NCBI GenBank assembly: GCA_964571525.1
Contig: CAZNBY010000001.1
Coordinates: forward strand, 90,329 to 154,328
Direction: 5' to 3'
Source of the DNA: an uncultured Planctomycetota bacterium
GTDB taxonomy: Bacteria; Planctomycetota; B143-G9
Length of the DNA stretch: 64,000 bases
Of the stretch, positions 1 through 30,148 are shown piece by piece; within the stretch, counting starts at the first letter, position 1; every line of letters begins with the position of its first letter. Under the pieces are notes generated by a model. The model saw nothing but the letters and a program-made list of their open reading frames with translations, searched no databases and had not been told where the DNA came from. A program made the position numbers and the translations under genes.

Positions 1-724
1 ACGCGACGCCGTCAATCACGCTTGCGGGCGGATAGTAGCCGTTTGTGCCCGACCAAGAGTGGAAATAGTACATTGAGGGCGCTGCGGCGACATCCTGCAA
101 CAGCTCTTTTGGAACAGGATTATTAAACTGGTCGCGTATGCGCAGTGTGACGAGGTAGTCGAGATACACGCGGATATAAACTGGTCCGCTCGTGTTGCTC
201 CAGACGAACTCGTTCGTCGCTTTCTGCGCGGCGAGATAGTTGAATATGTAAGGAGTGGCAGCCGAACCGTTTCCGCCAGCTTCGGCATTGGCGATTCCGG
301 TCCACGCTGAGCCAGCCGATGTCACATACCCGGGGGCGTACGCAATAACGCCGCACACCTGGCCGTTAACAACGGTCGTCGTTCCACCACTATTGAAACC
401 AGAACGACCGTTAAGAAACTCGACATCGTTGTCAGCGCCACCGGCAGGCGGCACGGCCGTTCTATCATCATCAGGATTAGATGGCGATGTTGAGCCGTCG
501 TAGCCGTATAGCACGACATTGGGTGTGACGGTAATCGAGCCGTCAGCGTCAGGAAGATGGATTTCCACGGTAGCCGTGTTAATCGGCTTACCATCTCTGC
601 CTATGACTTCGACAATAATGTCGCCGTTACCCGTGAGCTGATACGCGGCGTACGCGTTGCTCGCGGATAGCAGAAGTGTGAGTGCCGCAAGAACGGCAAG
701 GGTCAAACCAAGAAATCGTCTCAT
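1..724 (-). CDS. Secreted hypothetical protein, 5'-complete, runs off left window edge (partial)
   Basis: Hand translation of the third minus frame from ATG at 724 (MRRFLGLTLAVLAALTLLLSASNAYA|AYQLTGNG...), no stop to position 1; AGGAG Shine-Dalgarno 6 nt upstream; signal-peptide-like N-terminus. Not in ORF track, which appears to omit edge-truncated ORFs. Confidence 0.55.
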   Translation of the reverse strand, partial: MRRFLGLTLAVLAALTLLLSASNAYAAYQLTGNGDIIVEVIGRDGKPINTATVEIHLPDADGSITVTPNVVLYGYDGSTSPSNPDDDRTAVPPAGGADNDVEFLNGRSGFNSGGTTTVVNGQVCGVIAYAPGYVTSAGSAWTGIANAEAGGNGSAATPYIFNYLAAQKATNEFVWSNTSGPVYIRVYLDYLVTLRIRDQFNNPVPKELLQDVAAAPSMYYFHSWSGTNGYYPPASVIDGVA

Positions 725-1015
725 AACCAGCTCCTTATTTGGATAAGTACTGTTGTGTGCCATTTTTAAGGATACCTCGAAAGGCATCCGGCGTCGAACG
801 CCACTTAAGAGCCTATCTGAACTATCGCAGTTGCCCGCGATTTTCGCAAAATTCAAAGAACAAATCGGCCATTTATGCATGCCGATAATGATGCACCGAC
901 GGTGCTCCTAACACACACCGCCTGACATCAGATATATGTAATTCAACTCGTTTTCACAAGCGAAGGTTGCTTCCTCCACTTGCCCTCCGCGTAGGAACCT
1001 CCGTCAATTGCCGAT

Positions 1016-1044
1016 ACTATACACCAGCAATTCCCCGTTGTCAA
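1016..1044 (-). promoter_or_regulatory. Sigma-70-type promoter P1 (TTGACA-N17-TATAGT on minus strand)
   Basis: Minus-strand reading: cgcTTGACAacggggaattgctggtgTATAGT; -35 at 1039-1044, -10 at 1016-1021; points toward the CDS starting at 724. Confidence 0.45.
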
Positions 1045-1096
1045 GCGCTACCGGTTTTTATCGAAAAAAGACGGTACCGCTAAATAAGGGTCGAGT

Positions 1097-1124
1097 ATTA
1101 TAACCATCCAAATCCCCTTGTCAA
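1097..1124 (-). promoter_or_regulatory. Sigma-70-type promoter P2 (TTGACA-N16-TATAAT on minus strand)
   Basis: Minus-strand reading: cgcTTGACAaggggatttggatggtTATAAT; shares extended motif CGCTTGACAA(C/G)GGGGA with P1, about 80 bp upstream of it. Confidence 0.45.
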
Positions 1125-1307
1125 GCGAATTTTTCCGCATCTGATTCGCGGCAAACTTGAATCTGACGCGGGTTCCCGCATAATTTGCTTCACAAACACA
1201 ATATATAGGCATATCTTCACGCAAGCCACTACATATTGCGTAACATTTTTTCGCGAAAAATTCTTGTTTGAGCACCTTGCAGGCCGAAATATTTGGATAT
1301 ACTTGTT

Positions 1308-2795
1308 ATGATGATTCGATTTCTTGCCATTCTTGCCATACTCGTGTTGTTCTGCCAGAATTCGTGGGCAGAGTCTATTTCATTCCTTAACTCGGGTAAG
1401 GGTAGACTCCGCATGGCAAAGTTTGTCGCAGACGACTTTACCTTTACCGAGGTCGCTGGCGAGCTTTCGATAAAGGACGGCATCATCTCAGTCTCTCAGC
1501 TTACCGCAAAGGCTATGGGTGGGAGCGTGGTCGGTCGCGCTTCTTTCGACCTTAATATCTTTCCGCCCAGCTATGAGGTCGAAATTGACCTGCTTGACTG
1601 CGAGGCTGAGGAGCTTAAACGCCAGATTGACATTGACACATATTTTCTTAACGGCAAACTTAACGGCAGAATCAAAATCACCGGCAAGTTCGACGATGCT
1701 AACCCCACAATGCTAATTACAGGCCATCTTAAAATGACCGCGCGCGAGAACGACATTCTTACCTATGCCGAAGCCGACATCACCTATCGCTTGCACCATC
1801 TCACCCTGTCCAATATATACGGCAGAGAGCCAGCTAACGGAACCGTGAACGCAAATCTTGAAATTCTGTTCGAAAAAGGCTCAACGCGCATCATCGGCAC
1901 AGTCGGTTTGCAGGATGTCGGCATTCATACGCTTGCGCGCATCGGCAAAGATGATCCAGAATGGCTTGATGGGCATGTTACCGGCAATTCTGAATTGAGG
2001 CTTTGTTTTGGCAAAGGAATGGTTATCGAGGACTGTCTGACCAACGGCATAATCACCTCTTCGTCATTTACTGTCTTTGGCGTTCCCATCACAGGAGCAG
2101 CGAACTTTACATTCGACGGCGACAGGCTAACCGTGCGCGATTTCGTTGGACAATCGTGTGGAGGCTCTGTTAAGGGGATGTTCTACACCGAAAATGCGGG
2201 TTCTCGCGTAGAGGTTGCAGGAGAAAAGGTTCGGCTTGCAGAGGTATTGAAGGCATTAAAGCTTGGCAACGAGCTTAGCGGTGATACCACTTTTACGACT
2301 GCTTTCGAAACCAAGACAAATGTGCCCGGTTTGACGGGTGACTGGTTTGTTGAGGTAAAGAATGGGCTTTTAACCAAGGCTCCGGGAATAATGAGCGTCG
2401 TAACACTGCTTGGGCTTCCAACCTTTGGGCAGCACGAGTTCACCGAAGGCAAAGCGAAGATGCGCTTCAACGGCAGACGCATAGTGGTTGACGACGCGCA
2501 GCTTGTATCCAAACGCCTTACGCTTCAATACGGCACGGGATATGTTGATTTCGACGGCCCGATGCACATGCAGTTCGACATATACTCCGAGGGAACGCTT
2601 TTAAGCCTTTTGTTGGGAAAGTTTGGGTCGGCGATTGCAAATCTGTTAGATCCGGTATCCAAGGTCTTTAAAGTTGAGATAAAGGGCACTATTGGCGAAC
2701 CTATCGCCTCGATGCGCGCTTTTTCAAAGCGAATTGACAAGGAGGGCGCGCCACCGGAACAACCCACAGAGAACCAGAAAGAAGGGGATAAGTGA
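1308..2795 (+). CDS. Secreted AsmA-like / outer-membrane-assembly-type protein (function uncertain)
   Basis: ORF 1293-2795 (track start is TTG; ATG at 1308 gives MMIRFLAILAILVLFCQNSWA signal peptide). C-terminal region (FDGPMHMQFDI...GTIGEP) resembles AsmA-family C-termini; assignment from memory of family features only. Confidence 0.45.
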   Translation: MMIRFLAILAILVLFCQNSWAESISFLNSGKGRLRMAKFVADDFTFTEVAGELSIKDGIISVSQLTAKAMGGSVVGRASFDLNIFPPSYEVEIDLLDCEAEELKRQIDIDTYFLNGKLNGRIKITGKFDDANPTMLITGHLKMTARENDILTYAEADITYRLHHLTLSNIYGREPANGTVNANLEILFEKGSTRIIGTVGLQDVGIHTLARIGKDDPEWLDGHVTGNSELRLCFGKGMVIEDCLTNGIITSSSFTVFGVPITGAANFTFDGDRLTVRDFVGQSCGGSVKGMFYTENAGSRVEVAGEKVRLAEVLKALKLGNELSGDTTFTTAFETKTNVPGLTGDWFVEVKNGLLTKAPGIMSVVTLLGLPTFGQHEFTEGKAKMRFNGRRIVVDDAQLVSKRLTLQYGTGYVDFDGPMHMQFDIYSEGTLLSLLLGKFGSAIANLLDPVSKVFKVEIKGTIGEPIASMRAFSKRIDKEGAPPEQPTENQKEGDK

Positions 2796-7584: not shown

Positions 7585-7669
7585 GCCCTATGCTCCTATT
7601 GTGCAAAAAAGGTTTTGCATTATACGGCACAGAGGGCGTCTGTCAAGTAGGTCATTTTGCTCGGTTTTG

Positions 7670-8350: not shown

Positions 8351-11300
8351 ATGACACGCACCGCCAGACGCGTTTTTCTACTTCTTCTTTGTACTTGCGC
8401 CTGTTTTCTGACATATATCCCTAATCTGCGTGCAGAGGATTTACAAACGCCTCCAAGCCTTATCCCCTATCCCCCAGGTGCCGAGATATTCTTTCGAGAC
8501 TCCTTTATGCGCGAAAAGCCCGAGGAGGGTGAATGGACGCAAATTTGTGGTAAGTGGGAATTCGACCAGATGGCAAAGCCGGGTGTCAGCGCGAATCCCT
8601 TCTCTGTTGTCGGCAGCTCTAAAGACGAAGCGATGCTTGTTACTGGCTATGACTGGTGGCGAAACTATTACTTCAATGCGGCTCTGCGTACTCCTCCGAT
8701 TTACAACTCGTTTGGCGTAGTTTACTGCTTTAGAGGCAGGCAGAACTTCGTGTTCTTCGGTTTCTCACAGAAAGATGGTTTGGTTCTTCAACTGACTTTG
8801 AACGGAAGCGATAAGCAGTTTGCCGTTGAAAAGAAATTCGCCGTGCCGTACCAGTGGTACGATGTCGGCATTGCGATATCTGGCAAAACCGTTGTTGCAA
8901 TGCTCGATAGAAGGCCAGTCTTCACAGTGGAACTGCCATTTGAACTTAGCGGAAAAGCGGGCGTTCGGGTTACCGGTGCGCCAGATTACGGAATGACGGT
9001 TGACGATTGCTCTGCGACGGGTTTTAAGTACGATCGCGATGCGATGCTTGCCGACTCAAAGAATGGTTTTTCGCTGCTGCTTGCCTCTGATAGGCTTTCA
9101 AAACCGAAGTTCCCAGTGTTCTTTGAGCGAGATAGGCTTATGCGGAAATGGGCGTCTGCGGATGCAGATTGGTATCCGTTTGAAGTCCCCACCGTCGCAG
9201 AGGGCGAGCAACCTCAACCTCCGACAAGTTACAGCTTTCCGCTACCCATGTTCAACGACATCGCCATGCAGGTGAAACTGCCCGGGCTTGTGTGGGAACC
9301 TTATATCGAGCTTCGCAAGCAAAAAGCTGATGGCGTAATTGGCGACTCCATACTGCGTGTGCAGTTCATACCAAAAGGCAAGTTATACACGGTGATTTGC
9401 GCCTTACCGAACGGCAAAGAGCTAATAAATGTCCCCGATGTGACAGGACAAGACGGCATTGTCGAGGTGTTTTGCACGGGTGACAAGATTACATTCGGGG
9501 CGGTTAATGGTGCGAAGTACTCCGAGACCGTGTCGCAATTGGCTCGTGAGTTGAACAATGGCGTTCGTGTGATAATCTCGCGTGAGATGTTCGAAGTAGT
9601 TAAATTTGGCAACTTCAACCTCGATTCATCAAGCTTTTTCGAAGACACCTTCTACAACTCCCCATCAAACTGGATGACAGTTTTTGGAAACTGGGAAATT
9701 GCGTCACGGTGGGCATGCAATCCGATATACACCTATCTCTCATCTTGGGACCGCATGTCGTCGCAGTTGTACTGCAAGCACCTCTTTGGTGGCGATGTGT
9801 ATTGCGAGGTTTGGTTTTCGCCTAAAATGGCATCTCTTTCAAGACCAAGCTATTATCCAATTCAATGGTTTTCTGTATCAAATCCCTCTGTCGCGGGCGA
9901 TCTTTCGACCGGTTATACCTGCGCTATCGCAACACCTGATTCAGATTCAATGTCGTTGTTCTATAACGGCAAGAGCATCAGCACTACAAAGCTGCGTGGC
10001 GCAATGTCAGGTGGAAATTTGCATCACACTTGGTTTCATCTTTTGCAAACTCGTCTGTCGAATAGATTGTCGTACGATTTAAACTTCATTGACGAGCGCG
10101 ATGACCCGCGTATTTTCACTGTGGAAGACAAGCGCAAGCAGGACTTGAAACCCCAACCGTTCGCAATATGGAACTCGCTAACCGGTCTTACAGTCACTCG
10201 CGTTCGCCTGACTGCCCGCGAAATAGTGTGGGGCGGAATGAACAAGTCGCTGTACAACCGCATGCCAACCCCGTGCGGTGTGAAGACTTCTGTACAAAAC
10301 CCTTCTGATCCATTTGAATTCATCGCCCCTTCTTACGATTTTTCAAAAGGCAGTGCAGGTTGGTATGTATCTTCATCTCAGCCCGCAATAATCACATCAC
10401 CCTATCCTAACGACAACAACAGAACCGGCATCGCAGTTACATCGCCCTTCTGCGGATCTCGCATGGAATTTGTGTCGCCCGATATGAGCGTTGATTCGCG
10501 AGTCTATCAGAATCTGACGGTGAAATACCGAACTGATGTATCCCTTGACCTTTACATACACTCTGGAAGCCGTAAATTCCGCGTTCCACTCGACAGCGAT
10601 AAAAAGGCAGAGACTCTCGACTGGGCTATTCCTGTCGGCAAACGATATTACACAAAGTCGAAGGCAGGCGGTTACGACTCTGTAAAGATTGACCTTGTGC
10701 AGATGTTCGAGGAGTATCAGACCCTTGATATCCCACCCATAATTGACAAACTGACATTCGAGCGGATTGATGATTCTGACGAATCTCTGGGCGTTACAAG
10801 CCGTGATAAGATGTTCTTCGCTGTCTCGGAAGTTGCATTTTCAAGCCCTTTTAAGCCTGAAGTCAACGATCAGACTGCTCCTTTGTTCTCAGGTGACCCT
10901 CAGCAAAATGATTCGGTGCGCGAGTTTGTAAGTGGTTATCGCCAAAATAAGGTAGTTCTTACCCCCGAATTTGCCGCTACATCCTTGCCAAAGCAGGGCG
11001 AAAAGAAGATATATGAGCGCGCCGGTGCCATCATCCTTGAGTTCACTGATGGAATGCAGAAGCTCTCTCCCATTGGTGCTGTTGACGAAACTCTTTTGTG
11101 GCGCAAGCGTGAAAACAAGGAGAACTTGCTTATCGCCCATAAATCGGGCAGATTTGGGTTCTTTGGCGTAAAGGTACTACCTGAACCTGTTACATCCGAC
11201 CAGTATCCTGCTATGGCAATAAAGCTCAAAGGCAATACCGACCTGTTGTGTCTTGGAGTTAAGGCTGGGGATTGGCAATGGATTCCCCTCAAAACAGGAT

Positions 11301-30120: not shown

Positions 30121-30148
30121 ATTATATCCCTTAAAAACTTATGTCAAC
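30121..30148 (-). promoter_or_regulatory. Sigma-70-type promoter for TPR gene (TTGACA-N15-TATAAT)
   Basis: Minus-strand TTGACA 30143-30148 and TATAAT 30121-30126; spacer is short (15). Confidence 0.4.

Follow-up and report, generated by a model that had tools for sequence, protein, structure and literature searches.

Introduction

Genes for surface-layer (S-layer) and cell-wall proteins such as Lactobacillus slpA and Bacillus brevis cwp carry multiple promoters together with a long, structured 5′ untranslated region (5′ UTR) that stabilises the mRNA, and abundant surface-protein genes preceded by tandem σ70 promoters and a long stabilising leader are in general well known. The polypurine elements of B. 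subtilis hbs and mycobacterial katG are reportedly 5′ mRNA stabilisers similar to that of B. thuringiensis cry3A. In the 5′ UTR of cry3A, a Shine–Dalgarno (SD)-like element termed STAB-SD binds 30S subunits and blocks RNase J1, and it lies near the proximal of the two 5′ ends of the message (PMC4113751). For native tandem promoters of E. coli, mutual occlusion is expected only at spacings below ∼35 bp, and pairs set wider than 35 bp are free of it (PMC8830795). Here we analyse a pair of tandem σ70-type promoters and the long leader that follows them, upstream of a gene for a giant secreted protein in an uncultured Planctomycetota bacterium (assembly GCA_964571525.1, contig CAZNBY010000001.1). 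The stretch of DNA analysed comprises 64,000 nt (positions 90,329–154,328 of the forward strand) and is referred to below as the window.

The arrangement resembles E. coli tandem σ70 promoters, for example rrn P1–P2, in that its two promoters (P1, distal, and P2, proximal) are co-directional, have consensus-like hexamers and lie more than 35 bp apart. It differs in serving one giant protein-coding gene, not a stable RNA, in its spacing (75–81 nt here, ∼120 nt in rrn) and in the conserved hairpin that fills the gap between P1 and P2. The discriminator of P2 is G+C-rich (ATCGGC in the window, ACCCGC in a related locus, L006), which recalls rrn P1. In common with cry3A, the locus has an SD-like purine sequence that is placed early in a long 5′ UTR, well away from the true start codon of what would be a heavily expressed gene, and it has two 5′ ends (here predicted), the sequence GGAGGG lying close to the proximal one. 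It departs from STAB-SD in that a possible start codon stands 4 nt after the motif in the window and in L006, and in that one related lineage, L136, has no such motif. The likeness to S-layer and cell-wall genes extends to multiple strong (predicted) promoters, a long leader with 5′ structure and a secreted surface product, whereas the product here is 6,300–7,400 aa long and has no S-layer domain recognisable by Pfam in its first 2,289 aa (window lineage) or 3,161 aa (L006).

Giant bacterial genes (>5,000 codons) have been catalogued in bacteria of the Planctomycetes–Verrucomicrobia–Chlamydiae (PVC) group in a preprint, in which the words 'promoter', 'leader', 'untranslated' and 'transcription' do not occur. 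The locus analysed here, previously undescribed and well conserved, precedes a giant gene of a Planctomycetota clade about which little is known. It is an example of a familiar kind of element, so that the gain is incremental. It provides a concrete, conserved picture of the signals ahead of one such gene, namely twin near-consensus promoters at a fixed spacing, an SD-like 5′ element and a hairpin that would occlude the SD. If validated, it would offer strong promoters and a UTR usable in Planctomycetota genetics, and an entry point to how cells keep a 20-kb message intact through translation.

Two near-consensus promoters precede the giant gene

Both promoters lie on the minus strand between the giant gene, which starts at 724, and a divergently transcribed gene for a protein of 495 aa. 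This intergenic region is 583 nt long when counted from the recorded ATG (1308) of the divergent gene; the length of 568 nt given in an earlier reading of the sequence alone (the sequence-only reading) assumes a TTG start at 1293. P1 (1097–1124, minus strand) has TTGACA at 1124–1119 and TATAAT at 1102–1097, 16 nt apart, and matches the consensus at 12 of 12 hexamer positions. P2 (1016–1044, minus strand) combines TTGACA at 1044–1039 with TATAGT at 1021–1016 across a 17-nt spacer and matches at 11 of 12. Reading of the strand and a consensus scan thus bear out the two near-consensus minus-strand promoters that the sequence-only reading had placed 80 bp apart, the distance being 80 nt from −35 to −35. 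Start sites were predicted 7 nt past each −10, at ∼1091–1090 for P1 and at A1009 for P2. Counted from these predicted positions to the ATG at 724, the leaders would be ∼366 and ∼285 nt long, in agreement with the earlier estimates of ∼365 and ∼285 nt. The consensus scan found no alternative promoter nearer to this ATG.

Shuffled sequence should contain an exact TTGACA-N15–19-TATAAT only 0.04 times per 64 kb, and sites with at least 11 of 12 matches and a 16–18-nt spacer number seven in the whole window, counting both strands. Two sites of this quality lying 80 nt apart on one strand of one intergenic region are not chance. Directly upstream of the P1 −35 there is an A-tract (GGAAAAATT; 1128–1136, minus strand) whose sequence resembles an UP element and which may act as one; A/T-rich tracts also precede the distal promoter of the related loci L139 and L136, while L006 has a shorter AAA there. 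Further exact TTGACA...TATAAT promoters are present in the window at 7619–7646 and 30121–30147 (both minus strand), one of them preceding a σ54-activator operon, from which it appears that the organism uses canonical σ70 signals.

The twin-promoter layout recurs in distant relatives

We compared the window with the near-identical strains L001 and L002 and with the loci L006, L007 and L135, the moderately diverged L134, L136 and L137, and L139; L136 and L139 were recovered by a full HMMER search. Together these represent four lineages (the window with L001/L002, L006/L134, L136 and L139), and the clade is sparsely sampled. The source labels of the relatives are Planctomycetota or Candidatus Brocadiia bacterium. 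By lineage, homologues of the 495-aa protein are 44% (L006/L134), 37% and 30% (L139) identical to that of the window, and G+C content ranges from 49 to 66%. At all recovered loci the homologue is divergent from a gene for a large or giant secreted protein. A scan of genome contigs with the single 495-aa protein returned no relatives, and the same scan with the 495-aa alignment gave no more than the Guaymas scaffold, which was known before, and a match in Rifleibacteriota that is not syntenic. A repeated protein search with the alignment added nothing, and the N-terminus of the giant protein as query gave zero matches in the metagenome scan and the protein search.

L006 and L134 have TTGACA-N16-TATAAT (12/12) and TTGACA-N17-TAGAAT (11/12, with a TG) at the same place, 78 nt apart, in a 900-nt stretch for which shuffles predict 0.1 promoter-like sites. 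L139 carries weaker sites, TTTACA-N18-TATGAT (10/12) and TTGACG-N16-TATGCT (9/12, with a TG), 77 nt apart, and L136 has a single perfect TTGACA-N17-TATAAT (12/12). The P1 block TCGCTTGACAAGG and its 16-nt spacing are identical in the window and L006/L134. At P2, the block TTGACAAC, the 17-nt spacer and a discriminator and start region reading A.C.GCA are common to the window and L006; L006 and L134 show no difference over the 35 nt of P2, and the hexamers of both promoters are unchanged between them. The twin-promoter geometry is therefore conserved in related genomes, recurring in L006/L134 and in L139. Since the same layout is found in such distant relatives, the promoter signals are likely to be real, and the comparison supports the view that the two sites behave as genuine tandem σ70-type promoters.

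A DNA pattern describing the twin-promoter geometry also matched at least 120 metagenome loci (L014–L133), mostly A+T-rich, unrelated and with near-identical flanks. None of these loci was homologous to the present one by tblastn or blastn, and in 43 of the 120 listed a −10-like hexamer follows the second −35 as well. Consensus promoter duplications ∼80 nt apart thus appear to be common in themselves.

Constraint on the leader is concentrated at its ends

A long leader of 204–309 nt is kept in four of the four lineages. The window diverges from L001 and L002 by only 0.2–0.9%, a similarity too great for these strains to be informative on leader constraint. In comparing L134 with L006, we used third codon positions (6.5–11.5% different) and the DNA upstream of P1 (8.8%) as neutral yardsticks. 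From the P1 −35 to P2 +60 these two loci differ at 4 of 178 nt (2.2%): one change is in the P1 spacer, two affect hairpin loops (that of the hairpin separating the promoters and that of a hairpin near +30), and the fourth converts a closing U·G pair to U–A. The last 41 nt before the ATG are identical, and the 103-nt mid-leader, at 11.7%, diverges at the neutral rate. The window and L006 can be aligned only in islands, namely P1, P2 with ∼60 nt that follow it, and a block around the ribosome-binding site (RBS). The mid-leader is ∼80 nt longer in the window than in L006 and cannot be aligned between lineages; from P2 +60 up to the RBS block, conservation was found neither between lineages nor between L006 and L134. 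There are no paralogues of the leader elsewhere in the window. On the best reading of this pattern, the UTR would be functionally constrained solely at its ends and its middle would be a variable spacer.

The gap between the promoters holds a hairpin (1045–1080, minus strand; GCGGUACCG, an 18-nt loop with an inner U4/A4 stem, and CGGUAGCGC; −13.1 kcal/mol) that abuts the P2 −35. Hairpins of unrelated sequence occupy the equivalent place in L006/L134 (13 pairs, −25 kcal/mol) and, weakly, in L139 (−4.6 kcal/mol), and the sole difference between L134 and L006 is in the loop. The 3′ arm of the window hairpin contains, at 1053–1046 on the minus (non-template) strand, CGGTAGCG, the 8-nt core of the enterobacterial ops/JUMPStart element, whose full consensus is GGCGGTAGCGTG. 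We rejected an RfaH/ops leader, as only this core is present; it is missing at that position in L006/L134 and so probably arose by chance.

The first 60 nt of the P2 transcript form a conserved 5′ module (950–1009, minus strand) with GGAGG at 1002–998, 988–983 (as GGAGGG) and 977–973 and an 11-bp hairpin at 983–956. Three GGAGG motifs thus fall within the first 40 nt; three in 60 nt are expected 0.03 times, and only 0.05% of 60-nt segments hold that many. GGAGGG is invariant in four sequences of three lineages: those of the window (+22 to +27), of L006 and L134 (+24 to +30) and of L139 (+28 to +33). It precedes the real SD by ∼170–260 nt, and L136 lacks it. Directly 3′ of it, the window and L006/L134 share a hairpin of 9–11 bp that appears in the RNAalifold consensus with four pairs changed on both sides. 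In this module L134 and L006 differ at 2 of 60 nt, one of them in a loop and the other converting U·G to U–A.

At the other end of the leader, the ribosome-binding region (722–752, minus strand) has the SD AAGGAG at 736–731 and the ATG at 724–722, with CUUAU (746–742) predicted to pair with AUAAG of the SD region. The block GTACTT..ATAAGGAG..GGTTATGA.ACGA is common to the window and L006, and in the L006 fold UUCUUCU pairs with AGGAGAG. The terminator-like hairpin in the L136 leader (L136:1455–1480, minus strand) has the loop CUUCUU's place taken by CUCCUU, which is identical to the usual anti-SD sequence and stands ∼100 nt before the real SD, GGAGG; it could be a long-range SD-sequestering element. 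In the variable part of the window leader, two small adjacent hairpins (770–802, minus strand; GGCGU-UCG-ACGCC and GGAUGCCU-UUCG-AGGUAUCC) are present in both the minimum-free-energy and the centroid fold; they are lineage-specific and fall in the ∼80 nt missing from L006. A perfect σ54 −24 element, TGGCAC, stands at 763–758 (minus strand), and a σ54 activator is encoded nearby. A σ54 promoter at this site was rejected, because neither the window nor the corresponding L006 sequence has a GC at −12 spacing and the element is not conserved.

A probable expression module for the giant gene

We favour, with a probability of roughly 55%, the reading that the region is a strong dual σ70 expression module serving the gene of a giant secreted (surface) protein, with a 5′ UTR that tunes mRNA stability and translation. 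P1 and P2, with predicted starts 75–81 nt apart, would both feed a single long 5′ UTR, a spacing at which two polymerases can occupy both promoters at once. Transcription from P1 that runs into P2 may be paused, trimmed or insulated by the hairpin that the P1 transcript carries between the promoters. GGAGGG and the stable hairpin after it would act in the manner of STAB-SD, as a stabiliser of the 5′ end or a docking site for ribosomes, and so protect a message of 19–22 kb whose transcription and translation would last minutes. The rate of translation initiation would be set by the real SD, which in the folds is partly paired with the pyrimidine stretch upstream of it, and the mid-leader would be a variable spacer, often with a terminator-like hairpin.

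Several observations weigh against this reading. The start sites and the use of the promoters are predictions, and the predicted folds place part of the GGAGG motifs in base pairs. The fold z-scores, −2.9 for the leader of the window and −0.8 for that of L006, are modest, and four lineages are too few for statistical covariation. L136 has only one promoter and lacks a 5′ GGAGG, so neither feature is universal. STAB-SD elements are documented in Gram-positive bacteria with RNase J1, whereas the present locus comes from a metagenome-assembled genome of Planctomycetota, not from a Firmicute. Finally, terminator-like hairpins occur in three of the leaders, a part of the data that attenuation fits at least as well.

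Alternative readings of the leader

Transcription attenuation is indeed the main rival to the expression module, albeit an unlikely one on balance. Most transcripts from P1 and P2 would then stop in the mid-leader, with conditional read-through into the giant gene triggered by a protein, by a ribosome on a short leader open reading frame (ORF) or by another signal acting through the conserved 5′ module. A custom scan for hairpins with a U-tail found a weak terminator-like hairpin in the window (847–886, minus strand), in which AUCGGC, an 11-nt loop and GCCGAU (886–864) form a stem of 6 bp followed by the U-rich tail UUGUUCUUUGAAUUUUG. L136 has a 10-bp stem with eight G–C pairs and L139 a canonical GCGGGC-GAACA-GCCCGC followed by UCGUUUUUCG, so that in three of four lineages a terminator-like hairpin with a U-rich tail lies between promoter and start codon, as in intrinsic-terminator attenuators. 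The counts of such hairpins, however, do not exceed those in shuffled sequence at any locus, their positions vary (+81, +124 and +175), and the L006/L134 leader, which evolves neutrally in this part, has no clear terminator counterpart. The likeness to intrinsic-terminator attenuators also ends at the sensing side: the folds contain no conserved antiterminator or alternative pairing, and there is no conserved leader peptide and no known sensor RNA.

The candidate for a translated trigger is a short leader ORF in the window (908–979, minus strand), which starts with GTG at 979, 4 nt after GGAGGG, has 23 codons (MEEATFACENELNYIYLMSGGVC) and ends with TAG at 910–908. Its GTG is in frame with the main ATG, the TAG being the single interruption, and in L006 an ATG at the equivalent place runs in frame into the giant ORF; in both loci a start codon with a good SD lies upstream of the mid-leader hairpin position, which speaks for attenuation. 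The substitutions between L006 and L134 (3 synonymous and 9 nonsynonymous nucleotides) nevertheless look neutral, with no purifying selection, and in L139 the ORF is absent, no start codon following GGAGGG there. The start codon also coincides with a stem position, at which five of the six allowed pairs would keep a start codon. For these three reasons we downgraded the short leader ORF, which we regard as possible but poorly supported.

A more elaborate version, in which the 5′ module (GGAGGG and its hairpin, perhaps with a very short leader ORF) and the mid-leader hairpins together make up an undescribed control device dedicated to giant genes, is a long shot. If it were true, a 5′-loaded ribosome or 30S subunit would decide whether polymerase passes the leader terminator and would protect the nascent 19–22-kb message. 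Costly transcription would be coupled in this way to translational capacity, and the twin promoters with their hairpin would supply two differently regulated inputs.

We consider it improbable that a GGA-binding regulator of the CsrA/RsmA type binds the 5′ GGAGG cluster and the SD AAGGAG and so represses or stabilises the message. The leader does offer several GGA-containing motifs, one of which overlaps the real SD, and in L139 GGAGGG sits in the loop of a 9-bp hairpin of its own, the usual presentation of a CsrA site. Such loop exposure is confined to L139, however, the motifs of the window and L006 lying mostly in stems or at stem bases and not in apical loops. The ∼170–250 nt between the cluster and the SD also contrast with known CsrA targets, where the distance from motif to SD is far smaller.

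That P2 (and P1) instead make an independent or 5′-UTR-derived small RNA of ∼120–160 nt, with the giant gene expressed by read-through or from elsewhere, seems to us very unlikely. In the fold of the window leader the first ∼114 nt do make up a closed domain, with the hairpin and U-tract coming after it, and promoters as strong as these are predicted to be are typical of abundant RNAs. Against this, nothing beyond +60 is conserved either between lineages or between L006 and L134, no Rfam family is matched, the L006 leader has no terminator and no other promoter lies closer to the ATG. A 6S-like or other abundant small RNA was rejected on the same grounds, with no family match and nothing conserved past +60.

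The sequence-only reading had also noted a motif flanking both promoters and proposed it as the binding site of a regulator. The flanks, CGCTTGACAA.GGGGA, are exact at P2 (CGCTTGACAACGGGGA), but P1 fits only with a 1-nt gap (CGCTTGACAA-GGGGA) and otherwise has two mismatches, so the shared motif held for one promoter and in part for the other. A repeat finder reported the two flanks as a 25-nt direct repeat of 76% identity with 80-nt spacing, and the suggested search for the 16-nt motif, run within the window, found no other copy at two or fewer mismatches. Repetition and uniqueness would suit operators of one regulator acting at both promoters, as would the retention in L006 of CGCTTGACAAGG of P1. 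We nonetheless regard such operators as very improbable indeed. P2 of L006/L134 reads GGGTTTGACAACCCGG, so that the flanks are lost there; neither flank is present at the L139 and L136 promoters; other promoters of the window lack CGC...GGGGA; and the GCGC at P2 is part of the stem of the upstream hairpin. The flanks look like a lineage-specific duplication or gene conversion, not a conserved operator, and either event could explain their likeness.

A better candidate for a regulator site, and one that would serve the divergent gene pair, is a conserved inverted repeat between P1 and the divergent gene (1196–1241; CAATAT, ∼27 nt, ATATTGTG). Its arms lie at 1196–1208 and 1229–1241 in the window and at 9877–9887 and 9909–9919 in L006, separated by 20 and 21 nt, respectively. 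In both loci, whose 495-aa proteins are 44% identical, it stands 72–75 nt upstream of the P1 −35, and in L134 one arm carries a 1-nt change.

A new riboswitch or other ligand-sensing structured RNA, for which the leader is sufficiently long and the window fold z-score of −2.9 could speak, is scarcely credible, since the centre of the leader drifts neutrally between L006 and L134 and its length differs by ∼80 nt with no alignable core between lineages, which makes a ligand-binding structure spanning the leader unlikely, while the L006 z-score is only −0.8 and the lineages share one hairpin of 9–11 bp in place of a multi-helix covarying core. The Rfam covariance scan that had been proposed for the leader matches no family in any of the four lineages, even at permissive thresholds: there were no matches at the gathering score in the whole window, none at E≤10 in window positions 600–1450, only a 14-nt chance match at E=6 in L006 positions 9400–10050 (E≤10), and none at E≤1 in L136 and L139.

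The giant gene and its divergent partner

The gene described in the sequence-only reading as encoding a secreted protein does begin with a signal peptide (MRRFLGLTLAVLAALTLLLSASNAYA), but it is in fact a giant gene of at least 6,300 codons. The window contains its first 241 codons (1–724, minus strand), after which the gene runs off the end. On the L001 contig, which is 99.4% identical, the ORF (L001:14136–21002) reaches the contig end, so that the protein has at least 6,300 aa. The L006 protein (∼7,400 aa) is called at 7,474 aa, and its N-terminus is 48% identical to that of the window. The L006 gene call begins 57 codons before the signal-peptide Met, with an ATG that follows GGGAGGG (L006:9484–9655, minus strand), and it is the signal-peptide Met that aligns with the window start. 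The true L006 start is accordingly taken as 9484; the upstream ATG was either called in error or belongs to a leader ORF that is translated. No Pfam match was found in the first 2,289 aa (window lineage) or 3,161 aa (L006) of the giant proteins. In L002, a hypervariable patch begins ∼235 nt into the coding sequence, whose first 723 nt are 4.4% divergent from the window; elsewhere L002 diverges by ∼0.3%, and its leader is identical.

The divergent gene (1308–2795, plus strand; ATG at 1308) encodes the 495-aa protein and is the partner of the giant gene in four of the four lineages. The protein has no Pfam match, but its remote profile matches carry AsmA, YhdP or DUF748 domains, which on sequence grounds makes it a remote AsmA/YhdP/DUF748 relative. 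Beyond it lie genes for an HD/OB-fold protein, KpsF, a small protein and the σ54 activator; the window contains no rRNA gene. A TATACT (1296–1301) precedes the ATG of the divergent gene by 6 nt in the window and by 7 nt in L006, which hints that the transcript of this gene may be leaderless or near-leaderless.

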